33,055 nucleotides of DNA from Guillardia theta CCMP2712. Lineage: Eukaryota > Protista > Cryptophyta. How positions within the stretch are numbered: the stretch's first letter is position 1; each line of letters begins with the position of its first letter. The stretch lies in the NCBI RefSeq assembly GCF_000315625.1, contig NW_005434392.1, positions 1 through 33,055 of the forward strand, read 5' to 3'. Below are positions 1,917 through 20,059 of this stretch, in pieces. Both the position numbers and the translations under genes were made by a program. The notes under the pieces were generated by a model. That model had not been told where the DNA came from. It made no database searches and saw nothing but the letters and a program-made list of their open reading frames with translations.

Positions 1917-2112
1917 CTCTTTTGGCGCTTCGTTTTCTCCGATGATTCTCCCTCCCTTAGTGCTTTGAAGGAGAGTGGAGGGGATAGAACGCAACATACG
2001 TTTACAACGCAGCATACGTTCTAGTAAACGTATGTTCATCGGATTAAGAAGGAGAGCAGAGGGGAAAGGACAAACGATACAGATTAGCCGCAACATACAT
2101 TTACTAGAACAA

Positions 2113-4842
2113 TCAGGTATGAACATCAGGTGTGCATTCGTTGAACGAGTGCAGAGCTAATTCAGACAGAGTGAAGTAAGACTGACAATCCTTCCTTGTT
2201 TTCTCTCCTGCTCCACACGGTCCATGTTCACTCAGGCTTTCGCCTTGCTGCTTCCTTTTCCCGCTCATTGCACAATTAATGGCTGGGATCGAGGTTTTGT
2301 AGCTGTGACGTCCCAAAAGCTGATGACGTCGTTCTACACAAGACAAACTCATCAAACCCATTGGGATTCCAAAAGTATTCCACAAATAGGTAAATTGTTC
2401 TCCAATATGACCCACCATCATCGAGTGCAGGTAGTGACTCTGCAATTGCTTGGAATTTGCGATGAGACAGATGATTTTTGTACACCAACTTCTGATTTCG
2501 ATTGGTAAATTCTGAACATCTTCGCTGCTGATAGCTTCTGAATGCTGGCATGACAAAACTGTGATTATTTGTTTCCATTGCTCAATAGCACTTCTCCACA
2601 ATTGAAGTTTTTCACCATCTGGAACCAACGAAGAAATAAGTGTATCGAAAATACGGATAAACTGATCGCACTGAGGTCCGCTCAGATTCCTTTGCGAATC
2701 CTTGTCCTTCAATACGATCTTGATATTGTTGTCAGCCAATAGCTTGTTGATTGCTGACAACTTGGACCTGTTTACTGCCAGGTGCACGACGTGATTTACC
2801 AACATGTTAACAATCCGAATTTTCAGATGCAACATACAGTAAATGAAATGAATAGTGTCAAAATTTAGTTCTTCAAGATAGCGACATTTTCTGGAGATCT
2901 TCACAGAGCGCAGCAATGGAAGGGAAAGTCCGGCAACGTCAATTTTTTCATCGGGATCTGCGAAGCATTGATTGAGTTTATCTTGATTCGAAGTCGATGC
3001 CAAAGCCTGGAACAGATGCTCGTTGAAATCTTCAATTGGGTTCGTCAAATTGGAACTGTTGGTTTTGAGAATCATGTCGTTCAGTAGCTTAACACTAAGA
3101 GGATCTGTACCATGCATCCTGCAAAGTTCTCGGAAGCTGACTGGCCCACCATTTATCTCCCGAATTTGGAGGAACTTTCCAGATTTCCGATCTGAAGTTT
3201 GTTCACAACAATGAATACAGAAAGTACCGTCTGAGTCGTTTCTGCCCCCGTGACTTAGCAGAGAATTTTGTCCCATTAAATCTGCTCTGAAGAACAAGAC
3301 AAATTTGATGGTAGCATCCCCTATCTTCAAACCATCTCTGAGAATGGATACTATGTCAGGCTGATAGGGCTCCCAGAAATTGAATTTCAGAGTTGCTGTA
3401 GTGTCTGACAAAGGAATTATCATTAGGGTACAAGCGTCCGAAGCTTGTCTTATGCGCTTTTCCTCTTCCGCCCATTGCTGAAGATTTTTGCAATACTTCT
3501 TGGGAACAAACACCGTGAAACTAATTTCTGTATGCTTGGTGTCTCCACCGAGATTCCGGATAAGCAGCGCAGCATCTGAGTTCAAAGTCATAGCAATGAT
3601 GTTCTCACGGTCTAGGCCAAGTTGCTTGAGTTTCATGGTGAGACTAGTTTTGAGACTGAGTCCATGGCCATGGTCTCGAGTGGAAAACATCTTCAAGTTT
3701 TTCTTCAGCCAGATTTTCTTCATGACCCTCGTCTTACAGATTAGCTTCGCAGAAACTGCAACCCTCTTCAATCTTTTCACGTGTGAATGATACGCGATGT
3801 AGGACCTCATAGGCATTCTGGATGCATGCACTCCAGTACATGCTTCATTGACATTCGGCGCGTATGCTCGGGCAACATATTTCAATTTCTTTTCAAATTT
3901 TTCGTCGGTAGGGATTTTTGTTTCAATGCACTTCTTGACGTTCTCATTCTGCATTAGGCCAAGGATAACTTTGTCAATCAACAAAGGGTTCATCCTTGGC
4001 GACACATTTGACTCTTCTCGTGGCCGCAAGCAATTTCCAAGACGTTTCCATAGCTCTTCATGCGGTAGATCTTTCACTCCATGAATGATCGCTACCATCT
4101 GCAACACCTTCAACAAAACTGGGACCATGTATTCATTATATGCAATTTCCAACGCTTCTTGCGCCTCCGGGTCTTCGACATAGTCAAAATTGATGGGGTT
4201 CTCGTGGTGAGGCTTTGAAATTTTCGATTGAATGTCTTGCCAAAACTGATCAAACGTCTTGCAGGGAGGCGCGATTGGCCAATCGGTCAGATTTTCGCCC
4301 ACGCTATTCAAAAATTTGCCAATGTGCGGCTGCCCAGGACACTTCGAATCCTTAGTGTAAACGAAATTTTCGGCATCATCATGAGACAATTCAGGTTGAG
4401 GTTGAGCAGTTGAGAGCTCAGGCTGAGAGCTTGGGAGCTCACTCGAGTCAGGCTGAGAGCTTGGGAGCTCACTCGAGTCAGGCTGAGAGCTTGGGAGCTC
4501 ACTCGAGTCAGGCTGAGAGCTTGGGTGCTCACTCGAGTCAGGCTGAGAGCTTGGGTGCTCACTCGAGTCAGGCTGAGAGCTTGCCAGGCGGCCGGCGCGG
4601 CAGTGACGGCGGCGGCGGCGGTGCTCAGGCTCAGAGCTTGAGAGCTCAGGCTGAGAACAAGGGATATTAAGAATCTCTCTACCATCATCACCCCAATCTG
4701 ATGCCTTGTTGCGCTTCAAAACTCGTTTGACTTGTTGTTTCGCACATTTTCTTTGCTTCCTTGCCACTGGTCGCACTGTCGGAGAGATTGGTATCTTCTT
4801 GGAGGGGTCTTGATGAGGAATAATCTTGCTATGCATGTTCAA
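2113..4842 (-). CDS. DDE transposase, Transib/RAG1/Chapaev-like (CxxC + H..H zinc-binding type), 909 aa, intronless
   Basis: Ordered motifs TLNSDAA (D1), FFRADLMG (D2), FCIHC, CMLHLKIRI, NLSGPQC, HYLHSMMVGH and GLMSLSCVERRHQ (E) parallel the RAG1/Transib core: SCDG, GYDEK, CTLC, ALHC, NGNFAR, YFHKTLAH, GAWASEGNE. Confidence 0.8.
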   Translation of the reverse strand: MNMHSKIIPHQDPSKKIPISPTVRPVARKQRKCAKQQVKRVLKRNKASDWGDDGREILNIPCSQPELSSSEPEHRRRRRHCRAGRLASSQPDSSEHPSSQPDSSEHPSSQPDSSELPSSQPDSSELPSSQPDSSELPSSQPELSTAQPQPELSHDDAENFVYTKDSKCPGQPHIGKFLNSVGENLTDWPIAPPCKTFDQFWQDIQSKISKPHHENPINFDYVEDPEAQEALEIAYNEYMVPVLLKVLQMVAIIHGVKDLPHEELWKRLGNCLRPREESNVSPRMNPLLIDKVILGLMQNENVKKCIETKIPTDEKFEKKLKYVARAYAPNVNEACTGVHASRMPMRSYIAYHSHVKRLKRVAVSAKLICKTRVMKKIWLKKNLKMFSTRDHGHGLSLKTSLTMKLKQLGLDRENIIAMTLNSDAALLIRNLGGDTKHTEISFTVFVPKKYCKNLQQWAEEEKRIRQASDACTLMIIPLSDTTATLKFNFWEPYQPDIVSILRDGLKIGDATIKFVLFFRADLMGQNSLLSHGGRNDSDGTFCIHCCEQTSDRKSGKFLQIREINGGPVSFRELCRMHGTDPLSVKLLNDMILKTNSSNLTNPIEDFNEHLFQALASTSNQDKLNQCFADPDEKIDVAGLSLPLLRSVKISRKCRYLEELNFDTIHFIYCMLHLKIRIVNMLVNHVVHLAVNRSKLSAINKLLADNNIKIVLKDKDSQRNLSGPQCDQFIRIFDTLISSLVPDGEKLQLWRSAIEQWKQIITVLSCQHSEAISSEDVQNLPIEIRSWCTKIICLIANSKQLQSHYLHSMMVGHIGEQFTYLWNTFGIPMGLMSLSCVERRHQLLGRHSYKTSIPAINCAMSGKRKQQGESLSEHGPCGAGEKTRKDCQSYFTLSELALHSFNECTPDVHT
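4418..4583 (-). repeat. 30-bp coding minisatellite (~5.5 copies; SSQPDSSE[H/L]P)
   Basis: TCAGGCTGAGAGCTTGGG(A/T)GCTCACTCGAG repeats every 30 bp from 4418. Confidence 0.95.
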
Positions 4843-5365
4843 CCTCTATCTCAAAGTTCAAATCAGAACACAAGTTTTCTTCCAGAATCTGTACTAGTGC
4901 GTGGACGATACCCAGCCCGCGCAAATTCAAATCCCCAGCTTTTTCAAATAAGTGTCCACGTACCGGTGGTTTGATACACGACTAGGGGGTAGGGTTTGTT
5001 CCCCACCTACCCCGGTGGCCATAACCTCACAACAGGACCGGTGCATAGTCAAACAAGGTACTGTATCAATTCTTTACAGTACAAATATGTATAAACTTTG
5101 TACATATATATACAATTAAAATAAAATAATACGAAGTATGGTACAATTATGCCTAACTATGGTACAAAAAATCTGTACCTTTTATTTGAACAAAAATACA
5201 AGCATTAAAAACAAATTCAACGACCGCTCTGAAACCAATCTACCACCTCTACCCCCCCAAATCCAGTGATAATGACGGGTCATTACCTATAACCGGTACT
5301 AAGACCCAGAGAACTGAGAAAAGCCACTTTTCCTTTGTTTTTCCTGGTCAAAAACCTACAGAATG

Positions 5366-5469
5366 GACGGATCCTGCCGGCCGGGCCCGTCAGTAGACCG
5401 ACTGCAGCCTTCAGCCCCGCCTCAGACCCCCTGGAGGCCCGCCAGGAGGCTAAGTGTCCGGAGATTGGC
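5366..5469 (+). repeat. Repeat B, left part of an interrupted unit
   Basis: GACGGATCCTGCCGGCC...GAGATTGGC matches the corresponding part of the units at ~8185-8288 and ~8506-8609. Confidence 0.95.
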
Positions 5470-7968
5470 CATAGCGTTGCTTTTCCGGCCGGGCGCTCAT
5501 AGGAAAAATTGGCAAGATTTTTTTTTTTTCGAAGGGCCTGTGGGGTCCCTTCATTTCATGCCATGTGGGAGTACCCTACTTTGAGAAGGCGTGTAGGAGG
5601 GTACTCGCTCTTAGGAAAATCGTTGCTGCGCAGGGCCAGAGAGGGGTAGGGTGATTTGAATTTGGTTGCTTGGACACTTCACCACGCCAAACCAAAGTAA
5701 AAGTACGAATTTTAGAAGTATCTGTGGTACCAACTTAATATTGCAGCGTTTATATGGTACAAAACGAGGGCCAAACTGGTCGGAACTTCGACTTCCGAGA
5801 ACCCCTCCGTTTGACTTTCGTTGGGGGGTGGGGTGGGTATGGAGCACCCTCAACTACCCACCTTTGAACCAGTTTGAAACTCTGTGATAGGGGGTAGGGG
5901 GTAGCCCCCATTTCTCATTCCCCAAGCCCCCTCTCCCTGGACGAGCAAGAGGCGATGAAATGGTGCCTTCCTGACTCGCGAGGATGAACCTCGATATTGA
6001 GAGACTTCGAATCCAACCCAACTGAGATAGGAATGAGATGAAGATCTCATATCATACCTGTAAGAGATGATCGAGCTTCTTTCTCAACTCTGCAGGTTGG
6101 GCCAAGGTTTGAATCATCCATCGTGTACTGGAATATGCACCCTAGGTACAAACAATCCGCGTGTGTACTTGAAAATATTCTTCGAAGACAAGATGAAATT
6201 TTCATGAACAGCTAAGCAACTAATGATAGATTCACCATTGAACAGAATCAACTCTGATTGACCCTTCTTTCAAATTGCCGTAGGTTGAACGTTGAGCTCA
6301 AATGCATGATTTGTGAGAAATTTGTATCAAACTGTACCTTAAGCGACTTTGCTGTCTAGATATGTGTTCTCATGTCATCACTCACTTTCAATTCTTCTAG
6401 TCTTACGGTCAGGATTCATGCACCTCACTTTTCTATAGAGAAAGCTTTACATGCTCAACCGTTCAATGATGCATGAAGAGACGTTTGCACAAAGGATTTC
6501 TTTACCTGCCAGGATAGATGACTTTGAATCATCGTTGTTGATCATGAATCACTATACCCATGATCAAGTGGATTGACAATTGCATTTCCATGTTTCATGA
6601 CGTTGGATGATTTTTCTGCACTGCAACTAAGTTCTTCCTTTGTCATGACATTTCCACAACGCTGCAGAAACCTAGTTAGAAATGAAACAATGTGCAGATG
6701 AATCTGATATCAATAAATGAGATGTTCTTCGAATCAATCCTGCCTTGTTTGGACAGTTCGCAATGCTACCATGCAACAGTAGAGTTCTTGTCGCATTTGG
6801 CTCTACAGAGGGGTGCCTTGTTCAACAGAGCAAACACTCGATGATTGTAAACAAGAAGCATGTGACATGTAGCCACATCATAAATGCTGTACGGCCTGGA
6901 ATATCAGCATCTTCAAAGTGCTCGTGTTTGCTGTGACCGTTTCATCTGCTTGGCAGCGGCTCATTGATGGACACACGATCTGATGCAAGTTCACACCAGT
7001 AATATTTAGATGATGCATCATGTGATCAAATGGCATAGACCTTGGTGATTTGCAACATGTTTCATCGTTCCAACACATCCTTGAAAACCGGATGAAGAAT
7101 CCTTCACGAACCACTGGACTTGCTTGTTATCATTCGATAGTGCTGTGGATCATCGTGGTTTCAAGCAATCGAGCAGCTCACTGCTAAAATGCACTGTATT
7201 TCTTGCGAGCCTATCAGCCATCATCGTGAAGACATGTGTTCTTGAGCTCACTGGTGACTGTACGGCTTTTGAACAATCCAGTCACCGTCGGATGATGATT
7301 CCCTGTCGTCTTGTGTGTAATCTCCATCCATCTACTCCAACTCAGTTTCCCTGTCATGCATCGCAGATAGCTTAGGGTATTTCACAACCCGGTTTCGATT
7401 GCAACGTATCCCTGTGATGGTGATTTTCACTTGTATTATTGATGCTCTTCGCTCACCAAACGATTTTTCGTGAGATCCACGCACTGTACGAAGCACTCCT
7501 CAAGGATCATCATCTCTACACCTCAGGAATTTCCCATGAGGAGGTTCGGTGAACATCTGATGTCTGCACACGCTGCCGCGGGCTCGCTGTTTGCGAGCCA
7601 TGGTTAGGGCAGTACAGAGCGGTGCGACGTGCCCCGAACAAGGGGAGGCTCATGGCGTGTAGAGAGGTCGTTCAAACTTGTTTATAAAATTGTACCATAA
7701 GAAGGCTCTACAAATTAGTTAGTCGACTACCCCATGATCTCAGTGCAACTTCTGGGGTGCAGCCCTACTTCTCTGTTTATACTCAACCATTCCACAATAC
7801 AGTTTAAAATATCTTATTGGAAAACAACATCAGAGTTATAAACCTGAAATTTGGACCCTGTTTGAAATCCTCAAACACGCCACCCCCCAATCCACCTAGA
7901 AAGCAGAACAACCCCCTCACGGGAAAACATACAGCCCAAAGCAGAAAAAGCAAAATGTCAACGCTATG
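5470..7968. mobile_element. 2499-bp putative non-autonomous element with 10-bp TIRs and no TSD, inserted in repeat B
   Basis: Left end CATAGCGTTG (5470-5479) and right end CAACGCTATG (7959-7968). Flanks GAGATTGGC + CGGGGGCCTGAT rebuild exactly the uninterrupted B junction seen at ~8280-8300 and ~8601-8621. Confidence 0.85.
5950..7653 (-). CDS. Probable intron-dense gene of unknown function (micro-exons); exact model not resolved
   Basis: Minus-strand GTGAG...AG pairs of intron size (~7412-7456, ~7211-7251, ~7143-7181 and more). Candidate ATG in GCCATGA context at 7653. No long ORF. Confidence 0.45.
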
Positions 7969-8826
7969 CGGGGGCCTGATCTCTCCGGGCGGCCGTGACC
8001 GGTCAGCGGACCGTGTCAGCAGGCCCGTGACATGTCAGCCGGCTGACAGGGGCCGTGACCCGGCTGACAGGCTCACCTGACCGGTCACGTGACCGAGACA
8101 AGACTTTTTTATATCGCAGATCCAAAAACCCATAGGACATTTCTCCCAGGGGGAAGAAAACCTCCCTTGACCCCCCTGTTTCTCGACGGATCCTGCCGGC
8201 CGGGCCCGTCAGTAGACCGACTGCAGCCTTCAGCCCCGCCTCAGACCCCCTGGAGGCCCGCCAGGAGGCTAAGTGTCCGGAGATTGGCCGGGGGCCTGAT
8301 CTCTCCGGGCGGCCGTGACCGGTCAGCGGACCGTGTCAGCAGGCCCGTGACATGTCAGCCGGCTGACAGGGGCCGTGACCCGGCTGACAGGCTCACCTGA
8401 CCGGTCACGTGACCGAGACAAGACTTTTTTTATATCGCAGATCCAAAAACCCATAGGACATTTCTCCCAGGGGGAAGAAAACCTCCCTTGACCCCCCTGT
8501 TTCTCGACGGATCCTGCCGGCCGGGCCCGTCAGTAGACCGACTGCAGCCTTCAGCCCCGCCTCAGACCCCCTGGAGGCCCGCCAGGAGGCTAAGTGTCCG
8601 GAGATTGGCCGGGGGCCTGATCTCTCCGGGCGGCCGTGACCGGTCAGCGGACCGTGTCAGCAGGCCCGTGACATGTCAGCCGGCTGACAGGGTCCGTGAC
8701 CCGGCTGACAGGCTCACCTGACCGGTCACGTGACACATCACGTGACCGAGACAAGACTTTTTTTATATCGCAGATCCAAAAACCCATAGGACATTTCTCC
8801 CAGGGGGAAAAAAACCTCCCTTGACC
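7969..8826 (+). repeat. Tandem array B, ~320-bp unit (~2.7 copies), rich in TGAC/GTCA palindromes
   Basis: GGGGGCCTGATCTCTCC at 7970, 8290 and 8611 (periods 320 and 321). Internal palindromes include TGACCGGTCA, TGACATGTCA and TGTCAGCCGGCTGACA. Confidence 0.95.
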
Positions 8827-8874
8827 CGCCTTAGAAAAAACTCGTAACGTCGGGAGCCCCACTGCAAACATACC
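8825..8874 (-). repeat. Inverted fragment of repeat A fused to the end of array B
   Basis: Reverse complement GGTATGTTTGCAGTGGGGCTCCCGACGTTACGAGTTTTTTCTAAGGCGGG matches array A. Confidence 0.9.
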
Positions 8875-9017
8875 GAAGATCAGGAGCCTGGCCCGATTTC
8901 AGAGGTCATGTGATGGGTGAGGAGGTGTTCCGAAGCCCACAAGTACCTGACCAAGGCGAATGCGCAACCGCAACGATCCGCCATGAAAGCAACGCCGAAA
9001 TGGCTAAGTGTGAAAGA

Positions 9018-9039
9018 CCTGGTACAAATTTGTACCAGG
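9018..9039. repeat. Perfect 22-bp palindrome CCTGGTACAAATTTGTACCAGG
   Basis: Self-complementary, and built from two copies of the GGTACAA motif that recurs near module ends. Confidence 0.85.
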
Positions 9040-9313
9040 CATGAGTACCATGATTGTCAGGGAACTTGAGTGAAATCTCTGGATATCCGGTACAGTCCTT
9101 TTGTACCAGTAAATACGTCCTACAACAGTAATAAACTGCGCTTCTTTTTTTTTCGTGAAGTATAACCCTTTTCAAGGTTGCGCCCTGAGCTCAATGCTTT
9201 TATAGTTTCAACACAGTATGACCAACACGCCGGGTAAAACAGCTAGTCCATAACGCAACAAACCGGCAATTCAAAAAAAATTCATTTAAAGCCAAAATAT
9301 TTCAGTCAACAAT

Positions 9314-10615
9314 ATGGGTTTGTCCATGTCTGAAGAGGCCGAAGATTGGAAGATATCATTCACAGCTGAATGGAACAAGAGGAAGTCATCAAGGTTGCCA
9401 TCAAATGCAGTCTTTCCTTTGGCTGAGAACCCTTTCGGCTCTGCAGAAATTCTTGCCATGGCGGAGGTTTTACTATCTGGGAAGTTAACAATGGGAGAAA
9501 ACGTCTCTGAAGCTGAAGAATTGTTTGCTCGAACAGTTTCTGTACCATATGCTTGCATGGTCAACAGTGGGAGTTCTGCAAATCTCCTTGCATTAGCATG
9601 CTTAAAACATCGCTTCATGGAAGCAAATCAAAACTGGGAAATTTTGATACCAGCTGTATGTTGGTCAACGAGTCTTTTCCCCATTGTTCAGCAGGGATTT
9701 ACTCCAAGGTTTGTTGACGTTGATCCCAGGACGATGAATATGTCCCTTCAAAGCTTGCAAAACGCGATGAACCCAAATGTCAAGGCAATCATGGCCGTGC
9801 ATGTTCTTGGTAACTCGATTTGCATGCAAGACTTGATGAATTTTGTTAAACAACATGATTTGGTTTTGATTGAAGATACTTGTGAATCTCTTGGATCTTA
9901 CTGCTGTGTTGATGGTGAGAAATGCATGCTTGGTACATTAGGATCGTTCGGGACATTCTCGTTTTACTTTTCCCATCACATAACTTCAGGTGAAGGAGGA
10001 ATGTTGGTTTGTCAAAATGAAGCAGATTACAATCTTGCGGTCTGTCTCAGAGCACATGGTTGGTCAAGACAACTCAGCAACAAAGAAGCTATTGAGAAAC
10101 TATACCCTGATATCGACCCTCGCTTCCTTTTTCTGAACGCAGGGTACAATCTAAGACCAATGGAAGTACAAGGAGCAATGTTAAAGGTTCAACTGGCAAG
10201 GCTAAGTGAATTCAATGAATGCCGGCGAAACAACTTTCGCCGTATCTCAGAAGCTATCAATAGCAGCCCAGGACTTCGAGGCAAAATCCAGTTGATGGAA
10301 GCTTCAGATGGAACTGATCCTGCATGGTTCGGTCTTGCCTGTTTGTTGTGTCCCACGTACACTCATCAGCTCAAAGACTTTCTTGCATATTTGATTGAAA
10401 TGGGTGTTGAAAACAGACCAATCATAAGCGGCAATTTTCTTCGACAACCCTTTGTCAAGCAGAACTTATCTCCGCTGAATCCGTCTGATTTTCCGGGTGC
10501 TGAGGTCGTGCATTCAGCAGGATTCTTTATTGGAATTCACCAGATCCCGATTCCTGACGAAAGAATTACTGAGTTGATTCGGACATTTCAATCATTCAGC
10601 TTCCGTGAATTGTGA
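9314..10615 (+). CDS. DegT/DnrJ/EryC1/StrS-family PLP enzyme, ColD/E1-like nucleotide-sugar 3-dehydratase, intronless
   Basis: Motifs VNSGSSANLLA, PAVCWST, AVHVLGN, IEDTCESLG, GYNLRP and RPIISGN. FSFYFSHHITSGEGG has His at the position of the aminotransferase Lys, as in ColD and E1 dehydratases. Confidence 0.9.
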   Translation: MGLSMSEEAEDWKISFTAEWNKRKSSRLPSNAVFPLAENPFGSAEILAMAEVLLSGKLTMGENVSEAEELFARTVSVPYACMVNSGSSANLLALACLKHRFMEANQNWEILIPAVCWSTSLFPIVQQGFTPRFVDVDPRTMNMSLQSLQNAMNPNVKAIMAVHVLGNSICMQDLMNFVKQHDLVLIEDTCESLGSYCCVDGEKCMLGTLGSFGTFSFYFSHHITSGEGGMLVCQNEADYNLAVCLRAHGWSRQLSNKEAIEKLYPDIDPRFLFLNAGYNLRPMEVQGAMLKVQLARLSEFNECRRNNFRRISEAINSSPGLRGKIQLMEASDGTDPAWFGLACLLCPTYTHQLKDFLAYLIEMGVENRPIISGNFLRQPFVKQNLSPLNPSDFPGAEVVHSAGFFIGIHQIPIPDERITELIRTFQSFSFREL

Positions 10616-10979
10616 AGCAGCTTTCTCACTGTCTTCCCATTTTCATTCCTGTGTGGTAGTTGCTCTGCAATTAAAGTACGAAATGGAATTGCAAATGAAA
10701 GCTAAACAAACACTGATGTGTCTCAACTGTACCTCATGCCCATTCAATGAAATTATCACTCGCTGAGGATAAATCCGTACGCGATAGTTGCTCAGTCTGC
10801 GGGATTATTGTCACGGACAGGGAAGAAAATATCTTCAAATTGATACCTTATCTTCAGCCTAAAACAGCTTAGTCCCATGACTAGTGGCAGTGGCAGGAAG
10901 CAAAGGTGATGAGGTAGTTTTGGGGTTCAGGACGAGAGAGGGGAGATATTCTAAGGAAAGAATCGTTCTTTGGTTTGTC

Positions 10980-11605
10980 TTTGCGAGCAAGTTTCCTCAA
11001 CCGGTTTTCTTAGGTACGGTCTCTTGGAGTTAGCGAAACGAAAGAACGATGAAGATCCATTTTGGATTCCAAGTCCCAATGCAAGATTCAAACAGATCGA
11101 AGCCGCATACGTCTTGGATATATTACAACATCGCAAACATGATGAATAAGATGCCGAACAGTCTCAATGTGATCAATCTCTACAAGAACTGCACGATCAG
11201 CAGCCACAAGGAAACAAAGTATGTATCCGAGTAACCAAGGATATATCCGACTTCAGCAGGATGATACCGGAAGACACAGAGAGGATACAGATACACCTCG
11301 CTGAAGTCCTTATGGATTTCATATGACCATGCCAGGAGGATTTGACGAAAGATCCGATGGTCAAGGCGGAAAGCCTGGATATAGACCATGCTCTCCAGGC
11401 GATAGTGAAACTCACCAACCTTGTTAAGAGCGTGCAGCGAGAGAATTGTTTACTCTTATCTTTTCACACTCTTGGCGGAAGCCAAGGTTCGATCGAACCT
11501 GTCAGAGCTCATAGGAACCGAGCCCGAGTCAGACAAAGGCCTATCAGGATGAAAGGACAGTTGGCTGTCTCGTACTCGTGTTCGAAGCTGACTTCTCCTG
11601 GATGA
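10980..11605 (+). pseudogene. Possible decayed coding sequence
   Basis: One frame reads GFLRYGLLELAKRKNDEDPFWIP...KHDE*...LMDFI*PCQEDLTKDPMVKAESLDIDHALQAIV..., long but with two internal stops. No family recognised. Confidence 0.3.
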
Positions 11606-12050
11606 CCCAGGATACTCTACTCCAGTATGAATCTACTGAAAGGACCCCTCTGGAGGTCTTTGTTGCAGCAACCGTGTACTCGTGGGGGACCTACAAGGTA
11701 AACAGGAGGGGTGCGTCTTGTGGAGTACGACCCGTTGGAAGCAGCTTGCTGCCATGCAAGGACGGGGTTCTCTTCCCTGCGAGAGAGCATGGTATCCTTT
11801 CGAAGGTCAGAAGGGATGCTTGTCAACTTCCAAGGACAGGACACCCCTCCTTTCTGTAGCCCAGAGACGCTACCCCTGGCTCCTTCCTCGAAGCTATAAA
11901 AGGATGAAACTCGTCAGAGCTAGGCTAGGTGGTCCTCTTCCCCTTTCGTGTGTGTTCCACGATTGTGTGTGTGTGTGTGTGTGTGTGAAAGAAATAAAAG
12001 AGAGGTAGATCTCCTTCTGTTTCACCGCTTTCCCTCTTAGTAGAGAAATC

Positions 12051-12116
12051 CATAGACAGATCTGAGAGCCTGCATAGACAGATCTGAGAGCCTGATAGAC
12101 AGATCTGAGAGCCTGC
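12051..12116 (+). repeat. 22-bp tandem repeat x3 (CATAGACAGATCTGAGAGCCTG)
   Basis: Three near-identical consecutive copies. Confidence 0.9.
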
Positions 12117-12131
12117 AGGGTCCTCCGCGTG

Positions 12132-12243
12132 ATATATATGCTGAGGCGGGCCCGGTCGCGGGACTTAGCGTAGAAAACGGCAACGGATCCTGCCGGCCGG
12201 GCCCGTCAGTAGACCGACTGCAGCCTTCAGCCCCGCCTCAGAC
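12132..12243. repeat. Inverted repeat-A fragment (12132-12154) plus truncated repeat B (12183-12243)
   Basis: ATATATATGCTGAGGCGGGCCCG is the reverse complement of the A hairpin arm and tail (1 mismatch). ACGGATCCTGCC...CCTCAGAC matches B. Confidence 0.9.
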
Positions 12244-13042
12244 CATTCCATGGCATTTACTAATGCCCAATTATAAATTAATATCCTTTTAACAAACACT
12301 TGTACCTGTTAATTTGATCATAAGCGTACAGTTTTTAGTCAATTTTGTACCAGATCCATTTGTACCACTCAGTACTCTTTTATATTTGTTTTAAGCATTT
12401 GAGTTCCGGCTTACACGCCTCTTGGCTGTTCTCTACCCTGTGTACCGGTATGTTTGTCTGATATGGAGGGGGTAGGGTTATTCGTATATTTCGATACACG
12501 CCCATGAAATCTTATTAGTGTCAGCCATTGACGAGTGTAGTAAATCCAGCCAATAAGTATTTTTGTTTTCAAATCAAGGAGTCGTACGTCAGCTAGCAAC
12601 GGCAATCTTTTTTTTCCTGTACCGGTTATTTTTCCATTACCTACCCTATGTGTTGTAGGGTACTTCTGGAACACAGGTTCCCATGTTTCCAATCAAACAG
12701 CAATTAGCTAGCGTTTTCAGGATTTTTCCTAGTTCAAATCCCTGTCCGCCGGATTTCCTGAAATCCCAAACTTTATTAAAACTATTTTAGGGGTGCGGAA
12801 TCTGAGTACCCCTACTTTTGCGGGTTGACAGAGGGGATATCATATTTGTAAAAATTTATTGAAAAACATCATGACCAAAACAGGAAATTTCAATTAGAGA
12901 TTTTTTTTCACTCAACTCTGGACCTCTAATTGCTCCTACCCCCTAAATCCTGAGCCTCCTGCGTAGTAGTTTATTGCAGCCCACGGCCCCCTCCACCCCC
13001 CACCCCCCCTTTCATACCTGCAACCCGCGCAAATCGCTCAGC

Positions 13043-15250
13043 ATGGCCACAGCCGCTGGATCACAAGGTAGCCGTCAGAAATGCTTGTTCGGTTCACGAT
13101 GCAAGGTTAGGGACGACGCAGCTCAACTGTATCAATGTACTGTCTGCTCAAACCTGTTTCATCATCTTTGTGCTAGTGAATGGAGTGAAGAGTGGAGTGA
13201 TTGTGGTTGCTCGACTCGCAACCCAAAAGGAACAAAGGGACCAAAAACTTCAGCGCAGCAGCAAACCCCAAAAGTTGTTCCTTCCATCTCTGAAGAACAA
13301 ATCGCGGAATCAATTGTGGAATACGTTTCAGGGACTAACAGAACTAGACGGGTATGCAACAAGGAGAACGATCACGACGCAGACGGAGTTGCAGAGAGAG
13401 AGGTAGGCGGAGACGAAGCCTCGGACGAAGACGAAGACGAAGAAGACGACGACGACGAGGACGATAACGAGGAAGTGGAGGAAATGGAAGGCGAGGACGA
13501 ACAAGAAACAAGAGAAAAAATCGAGTCTGTCAAAGACAGGATGCTCTCGGACAATTCGAAGGCATGTTACTTGAGTTCTGTAAGTCAGCTGATTGCATGG
13601 TTGTATGAAACCAAACCATTTTGTTTGAATCACGAATTCAAGAGTTGTTTAGACAACGAACCCAGAAATCGTGGTCCAATTACCAAGAAGATCAAAGAAT
13701 TGTTGAAGAGAAGAGAATTGTTACCATTCAACACGAGAAGGTTCTCATACAAGCAATGGACCAGCTATGTGGTAAATGTCATGATGAAGAAAAAGTTGAA
13801 ATTCTCGTCATACGTAGCTTTGAGATCAGGTGTTAGGCATTTCTATAGAAGGCACCACAAGACCAAAACGTACAGGAGAAAGTTCGACGTTCAGATAGCC
13901 GATTTCTATAAAGGTCTTCAGAACACCATCGCAGATGAGAGAGCCGTGAGTGGAACGAAATTGTCATCTGGCAAGGATCCATTACCCTTTAGTTTGTATG
14001 TCATAATGGGTGGAGAGTTGCTGAAATGTAAAAAGATGGATTTAATAGTTGGTCGTACCTTCCTGATACTAAGTTGGAATCTGATCTGCAGATCTGTCAA
14101 TACGGCTGAGATTCTGTTTCAACACATGGGATGGAAAGACGATCACATGTGGATATGTTTTCCTCATAGCAAGACAGATCAAGTTGGAGAACGGAACGAG
14201 CCGAAATCAATATATGCCAATCCGATCTGTCCTGCAATTTGCCCCATTCTTGCTATGGGTGTGTACCTTATGAGTCATTCTCCAGACACCAGGAAGTTGT
14301 TTCCAGGTGTACTTGGCATGAAATGTGGTTGATACTGATGCATTTTTTGGGCATGATAGGTGGCAGTCAATACCATCGTTTTGTCAATTGTCTGCAGAAA
14401 GTCATGACACTGCCCGAACGGGGTGAGTGTGATGAATCTTCTAGCGCACAGGATGCTCCGTATGATTACCGAGCCATTCGGAAAGCTGTCTGTCAGGAGC
14501 TGCAAAGACTTGGGATGAACAAGGAGGATTTAGGCACCCACTCCATTCGAAAGGTGAGATATTGATTGATGATGTGAAGATTGTTTGAACCCTACGTGTA
14601 GGGTGCAGCGACGTATTGTACAAGTGGTTCTACTCACTGTCCATCAGTTACCGCGGTTTCTGACCGAGCCAGTTGGAACAACGGAACAATTCCCAAGACT
14701 TACTTCAAGTACGAGGCTGCATCAGATCTGTTTGTTGGTCGTACGGCCTGTGGATTACCCATTCATTCGGCGATGTTTGCGTCATTACCTCCACAGTTCA
14801 AGAAGGGAAATGATGAATTAGTACAGAGTACGATTCAGTTATGTTTTCCTACATTGCCAGGGAATATGAATGGGATTCTGATACATTGCTTAGCAAGCAT
14901 TGTGTATCATTTCGATTACTTGAGAAAGGAGTTGGACCCCAGTCATCCATTATGGAGCTGCGCATTGTTTCGGGATACTGGAATTTATGAACAGCTGAAA
15001 GAGCAAGTTTTAGTTCTGCTTCCTACAGACGTACCCACAGAGATGAATGAAAGTTCCGAGAACATGATGTGCACTGTGCAGGTTCCCATTTATCGTAGTA
15101 CTGGATGTCCGCCTCATGTCACATCACTGGTTCACGAAAAGCAGTGGATGATGAAGACACAACTTTTGCAAGAGAAGCTTGATCAAGTGGTGGCAGGCAA
15201 TGAACAGCTGGTGGCAGCCAATGAACAGCTGGTGGCAGCCAATGAACAGC
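13043..15250 (+). CDS. Crypton-type tyrosine recombinase with N-terminal Cys/His zinc finger; 3' end uncertain
   Basis: Removing introns 14307-14359 and 14554-14601 (both GT-AG) gives WNLICRS, SKTDQ, IYANP-ICPILA, LFPG|GSQYHRF, GTHSIRK|GAATY, RASW and KTYFKYEAASDLFVGR. This is an intact R-K-HxxR-W-Y set, followed by LPPQF and TGCPPHV as in CryptonS/F-like recombinases. Confidence 0.88.
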
Positions 15251-15358
15251 TGAGACTGAAGCAAGACAGCAGCTGGATAAGAAGACGATTAAGAGAGAAA
15301 GCATCCTTGAGGAAAGATCTCTTCCTCCTCTTCCTCTGCTTCCTCTTCCTCTTCCTCT

Positions 15359-15392
<34 letters not shown>

Positions 15393-17298
15393 TCTCTTAT
15401 CTCCTCTTTCTCCTGCTCCTCCTTTCTTCTCCTGCTCTTGCTCCTTCTCTTATCTCCTCCTCTTTCTCCTGCTCCTCCTTTCTTCTCCTGCTCCTTTTCC
15501 TTCCTCCTCCTCCTCCTCCTCCTCCTCCTCCTCCTCCTCCTCCTCCTCTACTACTCCTTCTCATCCTACTCCAGTCCTCCTCTCCTCTTCTCATGATTGC
15601 AGCAGATTCTCGGCTCTCAGTCGCTGTCAGAGAAACAGATACTGAGCGGGGTGGGAGACAGCAGATACGCGAGGTCAGCGAGGGGAGGTGGAAGACAAGA
15701 CCATGTCATTCAGTTCACCAGAGGAGGAGAGGCCAGCGGCAAGGATGGGGGGAAGGAAGGGGAGAGTGAGAGGGAGGGGAGGGAGGGGAGGAGAAAGGGA
15801 AGAGAATGGCCAGAAGAAGGTCATGACATGGGAAGGGGTTTTGATCAATCCATCAGGGAGATTCTACGAAGACTTTGCACGGAAGGAAAAATCTACAGAA
15901 CAGGCTTGTAGCCTCCTCCTCTCGATCTTCTCTCGCTTTACCCTCTTCCTCTCCTCTCTGGTTCCGCCAAACTTGTCCTCCACTGTCATTTCTACGCCAA
16001 TCTCTCCTCCCCTCTCCCCTCCCCTCCCTCTCCCCTCCCCTCCCCTCCTATCCTCTTCTCTTCCCTTCCCTCTTCTTTCCTCTCCCCTCCCCTTTTCTTC
16101 CCCTTCTCTCCCCTCCACTTTCCCGCCCTCCCAATTCCCCTCCTTCCTCCGGAGCCCACCTGAATCCCAGCAGGACGAGGAGGAGCGAGTGATCCCTACA
16201 AGTACACAGCTGCTCCCTACTACGACGGGCCGGACAAGCTGCCGGAGGGGGTGGTACCTCAGGTGGGATTCAGCTGGGAGGGAGCGGGTCGGCCTGACGG
16301 TCATGTGCAGGTCCCGATTGAAGTCAGGTTGCAGAGGATCGCAAACAAGATCGAGAGACTTCTCAGCTCGGGTAGAGCTGGACCCTCCCATCTCTTCCAT
16401 TTCCTCCTCCTCCTCCTCCTCCTCCTACCTCCTCCTCCTCCTCCTCCTCCACTCCTCCTCCTCCTCCTCCTCCTCCTCCTCCTCCTCCTCCTCCTCCTCC
16501 TCCTCCTCCTCCTCCTCCTCCTCCTCCTCCTCCTCCTCCTCGACTATCACCTTCTCATCTCCAGGCTCCTCGTCCTCTTCTTGTCCTCCCCCTCCTCCTT
16601 GTTTTCCTCTTCACCTCTCACGTTTATTCCTTCGCAGGTGAAAATCTTACTGAACGTGAGATTCGTGATTCAGTAGGTGATAACGTTGGGACGGGGAAGG
16701 TGCAGAATGAATACACCTCCACCACCACCACCACCTCCTCCTCCTCCTCCTCCTCCTCCACCTCCTCCTCCACCTCTTACTCCTCCACCTCCACCTCCTC
16801 CTCCACCTCCTCCTCTACCTTACCCTAGTTCCCGTCCCCCTCTTCGTCTCTCTCTCCTCGTCTCTCCCTCTCTCTCTCCCTCTGATTTCTGTCTTGTCTT
16901 GTCTCTCACTCCACAGGCTCTTCGCGTCCTTTTGCGTCTTGGACGGATAAGAAGGTAAAATCCCTTCCACCTCCTTATCTTGATCCTCTCCTTCCTTTCT
17001 CAGCTCGCTCCCCTTCCTACTTGCCCTCCCAGATCTCTCTTCCCTCCATCCCTTCTTGCTCTCACTCCTTGCTCCTGCCTCCCCTCCCCTCCTGCACCCC
17101 ATGCTCCTCCCGCTTCTGTGTCAAGACTTGCTACTCAGGTTCGGCAAGGGAGGAGGCAATGGTGCATTCCGCTACAGCAAGAGCGACTTGCTCGACTCTC
17201 CTGACAACGAGGACCTCTCCTCCTGCACCCTCCCTGCCGCTCCCCTCGACCGCCTCCACATCCCCCTCGAGCCTCCGAAGAAGCACGGAGGCAGCTGA
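15250..17298 (+). CDS. Multi-exon protein with two winged-HTH-like repeats; no independent start visible
   Basis: Exons 15603-15673, 15857-15903, 16174-16371, 16638-16699, 16917-16954 and 17139-17298 splice in frame. They give SEKQILSGVGDSRYAREILRRLCTEGKIYRTGRGGASDPYKY and TEREIRDSVGDNVGTGKALRVLLRLGRIRRFGKGGGNGAFRY, resembling a small plant/algal HTH motif (recalled as G[DN]xPDTSKALR...GxGGxxDP[FY]xY). Confidence 0.75.
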
Positions 17299-17384
17299 AA
17301 GACGAGAGGAGAGGGGAGGAGACGGGAGGAGAGTGGGAATGTAGGATACAACGCAGTTCTAGAACAACATGTTGAAACGAATAA

Positions 17385-18227
17385 TCACTGAGCTGATTGC
17401 CCCTTCCCCATCTCCCCTCCCCTCCCCTTCTTGCTGCCTCCGTTCTTCGCCTTCAGCTCTCCCCCTGCTCCTCTTCTAGAAAACTCTAGCAAGAGCTGTG
17501 GCCTTGAGGAAGCGACTCTCAACTCCTTCGTCTGACCCCTGCTGGCTGTTCGCTTCTTCCAGACCAGAGTAGATATCCCCAACGAGACCTCCTCACCTGC
17601 TGCCTTCCTCCTCCTCCTCCTCCTCCTCCTCCTCCTCTCCCTTGGTTCCCGTAGAAGAGGGCCCAAGCGCTTGTGTCTCTGCTGCCTCCCCCCCTCGCTT
17701 CTCCTCTTTCTCCATCCGCTTGCTCCTTCCAACCACCTGCGCTCTGTCACTTACTCATCCACATCCAGTCGTTCCCTCCATCCTCTACCACCCCTATCCC
17801 CACCTCCTTCCTAGGCCTGCCCTCCCCTCCTCTTTCCACTGTCCGCTTCCCGACCCAACTGCTCCCCCTCCTCCCCTCCCTCCCTCCCTCTCCCTCCCTC
17901 CTCCTTCTCTTGCCTCCTTCCCCAGCTCCTCCTCACCTTCTCGTAGAGAGGTGAAGGTTTTCCTCCTAGAGGCTTTCCCAGCGACGGCAGCGACACTGCG
18001 TCTCTTCCCAGCTCCTCTGCTGAATGCTGGAGCATCTCTCCCGCCTCCTCCATCAGCTTCTTGTTCCTCTCTGCCGCCTGTTTGGCACTGCTGTACGCCT
18101 TCCTCGCGTCCTTGTCCTGCTCCCCGAGTCAGGATCCTCCTCCTCCTTCGCCTCCATCTCTTGCCACCACCTTGGCCTCCCTCTCTCACCGCCACTGTGG
18201 CCTCCTGCTCCACCACTACCTCCGCAT

Positions 18228-19125: not shown

Positions 19126-20059
19126 CTGCCTTCACTTCAGTCGTCTGGTGTACATTGCTTCCGAATCCCCAGAATAGATGATGATTTGAACCGGATCAAA
19201 TCCTGCATAAATCGGTTCAAGTCTGTCACTCATTTCAGTGACCGACCCCGGCCGGGCCCGATATAACGGGCTCGCCTCAGCAGGATGCCATTTTCTGGAA
19301 TTGAAGGTACCCTACCCTATTCTTTTAGTATTCAAGAATCAGAAAATAACCCCTCCAACTGCTTGGGCCTCAACTACACCCTACCCCCTGTGTGGATGTA
19401 CCAAAACAACCGGTAGGTCATGTCTCCAGAATGCAGGGGAACAATGGCTGCCCTGACTTGGGGAGGGGAAGGAGGAGATAGAGAAGGAGAAGAATATGGC
19501 GCGGGGACGACATGGGCAGAGGGAAGTATGAAGTGTAGATACGGAATGGTAGAGCGCTGAATGAGCAGAGAGATGAGAGATACATCATGTCTCGACGCGC
19601 GAGGGAAGGGACGGGCGAGACAAACTATCTTGTCTGCCAAGGAGTGAGGAGGGAATAGAAGCGCAGCAGCATTCACTGCGCCCTTGAGCATGCGTTTGAA
19701 TTATCCTCTTGCTATGACATCACCAAATAGCAACGTAAAGGAGCATGCTCCAAGAATGCCGAACAGTGAAAAACTAGAATTCATCATGCGGTTGAAATAG
19801 AAGGCGAAGGGAGGAGTTGAAAATGTCGATATGCAGTACAATGTGTGGGGTTTTATCACATCATGAAAACCATAGTTGTTTTACAAGAATATCAGACTTT
19901 CAGCATAAGTCACTTTCATGGCAAGGTTCCACGTATATGAAAAAAAGGTGCTCATTTTGAAACTCCGGAGCAGAACGCATGGCTGCAAACGGCATCTACT
20001 CGGTGATCTTGTGCCACTTGCAAAAGCTCAGTCTTACATCCATGTAGGGATGTGGTGGG

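Follow-up and report, generated by a model that had tools for sequence, protein, structure and literature searches.

The whole stretch of Guillardia theta DNA analysed here (33,055 nt; the window) begins with 15 kb of clustered repeats and mobile-looking genes, among which an array of 321-bp repeat units is interrupted by a 2,499-bp insertion with short inverted ends (Table 1). The insertion, its target repeat and the genes on either side are described below, followed by the ways in which the insertion may have been made.

Table 1. Features of the inserted element, its target repeat and the neighbouring genes (window coordinates).
Feature	Position	Strand	Basis
Intact 909-aa RAG1/Transib-like ORF, candidate but unlinked mobiliser	2113..4842	-	Atlas feature matches to RAG1 clusters at 0.95; four-member cluster
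Interrupted 321-bp unit, left part (target left flank)	5366..5469	+	100% identical to 8185-8289 and 8506-8610
Element, 2,499 bp	5470..7968	.	Excision regenerates 321-bp unit; other copies end identically; belongs to a multicopy family that has several subfamilies
Left terminal inverted repeat CATAGCGTTG	5470..5479	+	Match of X5 record 9 starts at 5470, with 4,865 bases of unlike flank beyond it
Internal transcribed unit A	5950..6820	+ (presumed)	X21 RNA first mates on + over 5936-6817; read-through frame without homolog
Likely 72-nt intron	6212..6283	+	Donor CT in the 5470-7968 copy; G at 6212 in other copies makes it GT
Central segment, other sequence in some copies	6767..6847	.	Joint 6766>6848, loose ends ahead of 6848; RNA strand switch nearby
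Internal transcribed unit B	6848..7650	- (presumed)	X21 first mates on - over 6818-7699; no homolog for one frame
Right terminal inverted repeat	7959..7968	-	Matches of X1 record 8 and X6 record 24 end at 7968, unlike flank beyond
Interrupted 321-bp unit, right part (target right flank)	7969..8184	+	Repeat comparison
Two more 321-bp units, empty sites 8288/8289 and 8609/8610	8185..8831	+	GC-rich, very high-copy
Intron-split gene, putative Crypton-type tyrosine recombinase	12974..15300	+	Motifs in translations

Target repeat and neighbouring genes

The first-pass annotation had described the empty insertion site as present twice in the window. The two sites are indeed identical; they are, however, units of a tandem repeat of very high read depth and not an ordinary locus. 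Because the 321-bp unit is so abundant, the empty allele is a firm reference. The unit (5366-8831) contains a 96-bp imperfect palindrome, and in run X6 its depth relative to that of the element is about 100-fold above the ratio in X1 or X5. No prior description of the repeat was found in the literature searched.

No Pfam RAG1 match was obtained for the 909-aa ORF, no inverted ends were found around it, and single-sequence structure prediction of its protein gave a pLDDT of 34 and no usable fold. An ORF of 217 codons at 1263-1916 is convergent to it and has no known relatives (Atlas gave nothing). On the other side of the array, the intron-split gene has motifs that we take to be those of a Crypton-type tyrosine recombinase, for which Pfam and PDB sequence searches gave no confirmation. 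PDB sequence searches were empty, and no viral relatives were found. An intronless aminotransferase gene of the DegT/DnrJ/EryC1/StrS type (9314-10615, + strand; Pfam E 1.5e-64) stands amid mobile-looking modules and is possibly a cargo or transferred gene.

Ends of the element and copies elsewhere

The first bases of the element are CATAGCGTTG at 5470 and its last are CAACGCTATG at 7968. The two ends are inverted copies of each other over exactly 10 bp, the next three positions all being mismatched, and both terminal 10-mers occur only once in the window. The first-pass annotation had placed perfect 10-bp repeats exactly at both breakpoints, 5470 and 7968, and this is what the sequence holds; with the breakpoints fixed by the target repeat, inverted ends matching at 10/10 positions would arise by chance with a probability of about 1e-6 (2e-6 if a slide is allowed). 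Excision in silico joins GAGATTGGC to CGGGGGCC, as at the intact junctions 8288/8289 and 8609/8610 to which the first pass had pointed. The restored site is identical to the former over 104 bases on the left and 142 on the right, and to the latter over 104 and 83 bases, respectively; the sole difference between the restored 321-bp unit and unit 2 is one T within a T-run.

A C follows each junction, so the cut can slide by one base, and excision of 5471-7969 restores the identical site. The element is flanked by C on both sides, and an automatic finder would report a 1-bp duplication; excision of the element together with one C yields a site with one C fewer than the reference unit. No direct repeat of 2-10 bp fits at either the symmetric or the slid boundary. 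The insertion site is GGC/CGG (the slash marks the cut), that is, C/C in GC-rich DNA. The insertion in the Guillardia theta assembly is real, with exact inverted ends and zero duplication at the 5470-7968 site.

The two junctions of this copy have no read support among the contigs listed: those crossing their 14-base flanks numbered zero in four of four runs. Such holes prove nothing, and low depth, filtering or strain difference could explain them. One X5 contig, of depth 144, joins 5470 to 7968; this joint may represent a variant repeat or a footprint left by excision.

Evidence for a family comes from contigs of public sequencing runs with unpaired flanks, gathered in two comparisons, of which the first lists 24 each of 14,921 pieces and 191 loose ends, and the second 32 of 608 pieces along with 24 of 77 loose ends. 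Coordinates of minus-strand records were taken as native, in agreement with X8 record 19, whose 98 leading letters are the loose end behind 7167. Among the records listed in the two comparisons, the element is multicopy, with subfamilies about 85-100% alike. On the left, X5 record 9 matches 5470-5625 and then runs past 5470 into other sequence, the match of X1 record 1 starts at 5469, and an X8 loose end is situated before 5469. On the right, an X9 loose end lies behind 7969, and the matches of X1 record 8 and X6 record 24 end at 7968, beyond which the two records extend by 364 and 27 bases, respectively, into unlike flank; they are counted as one because variants are common to both. The same termini thus recur in copies with different flanks, which identifies 5470 and 7968 as the ends of the family. 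Different ends in other copies, a prospect raised by the first-pass annotation, were not seen among the records listed, which instead contain what generally marks a non-autonomous inverted-repeat transposon, namely dispersed copies with common ends and different flanks.

The base adjoining the element is C in two of three other left ends and in one of two other right ends among the records listed; some flanks of other copies end in GTC and some begin with CCCC. Zero duplication is established for the 5470-7968 copy only, since the left and right flanks of the other copies are unpaired. In X5, contig depths sum to about 2,000-18,000 across the element and to 1.4-2.1 million across the 321-bp unit, and records that look single-copy have depths of 61-82; although summed depth itself is no copy number, copies of the element probably lie in the tens and 321-bp units in the thousands. 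Two contigs carry partial matches. In the one from X8, the match to the left end spans 29 bases (5469-5498) and is followed by at least 255 diverging bases; it may point to a related family whose members could be longer or autonomous. The other, from X9, has at least 255 differing bases upstream of 6060, which suggests a variant having another 5' part of unit A.

Transcription and coding capacity of the interior

RNA run X21 contributes 488 reads, almost none of them in the outer parts of the element, and its first mates change strand between 6817 and 6818. Two runs guessed to be RNA cover nearly the same interior interval. With the strand of the library uncontrolled, this favours an interior of two opposed (convergent) transcribed units. 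Two of 12 joints are confined to RNA-like runs, 6209>6282 (X9) and 6965>7073 (X8 and X9), and look like introns. The former slides by two bases and fits a 72-nt GT-AG intron at 6212-6283; copies in X1, X5 and X6 have G in place of C at 6212, and the 5470-7968 copy looks defective at one splice donor. The 6965>7073 skip is without clear canonical ends. Long unspliced contigs run through many stops (X8 record 18), and the base composition is depleted in CpG and raised in TG/CA, as would be expected of eroded methylated sequence. Units A and B probably represent eroded genes or cargo. At 6848, a large deletion within the element was considered and dropped, as other copies have a segment of about 82 bases replaced at this point.

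The first-pass annotation had recognised no transposase inside, and the searches agree: the six read-through frames of the insert have no Pfam match, none of three partial frames matches NCBIfam, and no Spy-type DDE transposase was detected within the element. A unit A frame compared with 1.84 billion representatives gave one match, to a plant LRR repeat protein, which was rejected because it has no tblastn match to the window. One unit B frame had no match among 45 candidates of similar length and 935 longer ones. An intron-aware ORF parse (scores 0.5-24) gave no discrimination from opposite-strand controls (1-20), and therefore no protein is claimed. Neither an internal inverted duplication (score 56.5 vs shuffles up to 91) nor a longer subterminal repeat (34.5 vs shuffles up to 45) was found, and Rfam gave three weak matches, all far under threshold.

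The usual eukaryotic DDE transposase is longer than a unit of less than 900 bases can encode. Each of the two units is below this length, too short for such an enzyme, so the element is likely non-autonomous. The first pass had called it non-autonomous in appearance, and this much stands; the interior is nonetheless two transcribed units and no inert filler.

Mode of integration and relation to known elements

The length of a target-site duplication reflects the cut that the transposase makes in its target, and it serves in the classification of superfamilies. Zero duplication is rare among eukaryotic inverted-repeat elements, and Spy is the only cut-and-paste example in the literature examined. 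The reading preferred here, with a probability of roughly 0.5, is that the element is a non-autonomous inverted-repeat cut-and-paste DNA transposon, integrated bluntly by a DDE transposase that joins the ends at non-staggered positions. An enzyme supplied in trans would bind both ends and excise the element, then attack both target strands at one position, so that no gap would be filled and no duplication made; zero duplication would require non-staggered strand transfer of the kind known from Spy. Short perfect inverted ends, copies dispersed yet fixed in their termini, and no carried-over bases are cut-and-paste anatomy. It is from this anatomy that the DDE assignment is drawn, as neither an autonomous partner nor a transposase was found. 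Judging from the few flanks available, C (or C/G) may be loosely preferred beside the cut, in GC-rich DNA. The C bias of the flanks has direct-repeat orientation, whereas the preferred target of a symmetric transposase is usually palindromic; the bias speaks against blunt DDE integration and would also suit a 1-bp duplication.

Spy, as described in the available text of two reports, is an inverted-repeat DDE element with non-staggered integration, and its precise insertion without duplication was demonstrated by a paralogous empty site; its ends in silkworm are 10-12 bp, and its copies are mostly non-autonomous and 1-5 kb long (PMC4122938; PMC11304231). It belongs to the PHIS superfamily, targets AAA/TTT, has ends in GGANNNNG and is found in invertebrates (Han et al. 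2014, PMC4122938), and its PHIS relatives make duplications of 0-4 bp (PMC10045372). Like Spy, the Guillardia theta element has terminal inverted repeats, here perfect over 10 bp, and at its empty site no target duplication, here in one copy. Unlike Spy, it lies in GGC/CGG within GC-rich DNA, lacks the terminal motif GGANNNNG and has ends that begin CATAGCGT (CATAG); its host is a cryptophyte protist, and there is no transposase inside to place on a tree. Judged by these features, it would work like Spy at the 5470-7968 site and yet be no member of Spy, a contrast that the first pass had drawn for the target. Spy, which the first pass gave as the DDE example, is not the sole precedent for inverted repeats without duplication; tyrosine-recombinase polinton-like viruses of cryptophytes likewise have inverted repeats mostly without duplication (PMC12220804, available text). 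PlavakaB, of the CMC group, resembles the element in ends that begin CAT; its ends are CATCA..TGATG, however, and it is a fungal element with duplications of 2-3 bp (PMC12730594, available text).

No earlier description of such a family, in Guillardia theta or of such a kind, was found in the literature searched, of which Repbase, subscription journals and supplements were no part, so that it may be catalogued there; the available part of PMC4482050 has no mention of Guillardia theta, and that of bioRxiv 2024.06.04.597373 has nothing relevant to such an element. The element is real and, on the strength of one fully resolved site, is likely a new form of duplication-free inverted-repeat transposon. 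If the family is blunt, with its other ends, GC-rich target and protist host, then either Spy-like chemistry is wider and more flexible or scarless integration arose twice, and an enzyme that inserts without a scar into GC-rich targets could be of use alongside Spy in gene transfer. A test of the claim would cost little, since Guillardia theta grows in culture, carries many copies and has a publicly available assembly.

The zero duplication reported in the first pass stands for the 5470-7968 copy, where no repeat of 2-10 bp fits, with one reservation. The family may normally duplicate its target, the 5470-7968 copy being exceptional either in that a 1-bp duplication was masked by a one-base loss in the C run (by mutation or assembly error) or in that end-joining repair sealed an excised blunt element into a break. 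Both the C on either side of this copy and C as the commonest neighbour at both ends in the other copies listed are consistent with this, as are the capacity of PHIS-type elements for 1-bp duplications (PMC10045372, available text), the one-base difference between adjacent repeat units in a T-run and the lack of a bridging contig among those listed. Yet a second event would have had to fall precisely at the junction, and duplications of 2-10 bp fit neither boundary. Moreover, the starting site that a 1-bp duplication would need is a one-C variant of the target, and in X5 such variants occur at depths of 82 and 122 only, against more than a million for the repeat. We regard an exceptional copy as unlikely, though a serious alternative; if the family gives ordinary duplications, the insertion is a single aberrant copy of a repeat not yet catalogued.

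It is rather improbable that a circular form of the element was integrated by a tyrosine recombinase, from either a polinton-like virus or a Crypton-type element, that used the 10-bp inverted ends as binding sites. The gene 5 kb away that looks Crypton-like by its motifs could be a source of such an enzyme, although Pfam and PDB sequence searches do not confirm the call, and a crossover core of minimal size could underlie the one-base slide. One other right end, however, has no following C, no foreign bases were brought in, and no end-to-end (circle) joint is among the joints listed, contigs being prone to drop rare forms. In the available text of the sources, recombination sites need a spacer of 6-8 bp between arms of 11-13 bp, (PMC3212892); the joined ends here would be spacer-free. 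Polinton-like viruses of cryptophytes share the host group with the element and, as noted, inverted repeats without duplication, but they measure 14-40 kb, with repeats of hundreds of bases and capsid genes (PMC12220804), in contrast to 2.5 kb, 10-bp ends and no Pfam match in six frames. Cryptons and IS607-like eukaryotic elements, which resemble the element in making no classical target duplication, have no terminal inverted repeats, and Cryptons have terminal direct repeats of 4-6 bp (PMC3212892, PMC3627910); the element has inverted ends and no 4-6-bp terminal direct repeat, and falls outside the IS607-like group as the available text defines it (PMC3627910).

The RAG1-like ORF lies 630 bases from the element, and a transposase of this RAG1/Transib-like family might mobilise it as a non-autonomous partner, having lost its 5-bp stagger (or by a side reaction) and pasting scarlessly into GC-rich DNA. 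The ORF is intact, has RAG1-like features and has near-identical copies elsewhere. The first seven bases of the element match the RAG heptamer at five of seven positions; the third differs, the ends beginning CAT instead of the required CAC. The two convergent units recall the RAG1L-RAG2L layout of RAGL elements, but RAG, RAGL and Transib give 5-bp duplications (bioRxiv 2023.08.20.553239, available text), of which there is none here. The RAG1-like gene also stands outside the ends of the element and is flanked by neither inverted ends nor a copy of the terminal 10-mer, and tblastx found no similarity between it and the insert, including the internal units. This origin is therefore very doubtful; were it true, blunt DDE integration would have arisen a second time and independently, in the lineage related to the V(D)J recombinase. 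An assembly chimera of the repeat array with a dispersed repeat is least likely of all, for although both parts are repetitive and the junctions are unbridged among the contigs listed, a mis-join would not hit the true ends of the family on both sides with the repeat unit in exact register.

Minor observations concern short sequences in and beyond the window. A pattern search for both ends of the element elsewhere returned three metagenome loci and one viral locus; with only 19-27 pattern bases matching, all four were treated as chance. In the window, a 171-bp tandem array is present, and an inverted 50-bp piece of it closes the 321-bp array (234-1321 and 8825-8874); a 62-bp piece of the 321-bp unit lies at 12096-12244, with a further site at 19236-19290. 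The motif GGGCCC...GCCTCAG is common to these four places, which border one-gene modules; the arrangement suggests that a single mobile system may recombine at them. GGTACAA is another recurrent motif, with 13 occurrences within the first 20 kb, 10 of them upstream of the mobile-looking genes and of both internal units (positions include 5140, 5161, 5756, 7690, 9021-9101 and 12300-12360), and is a possible shared promoter signal.
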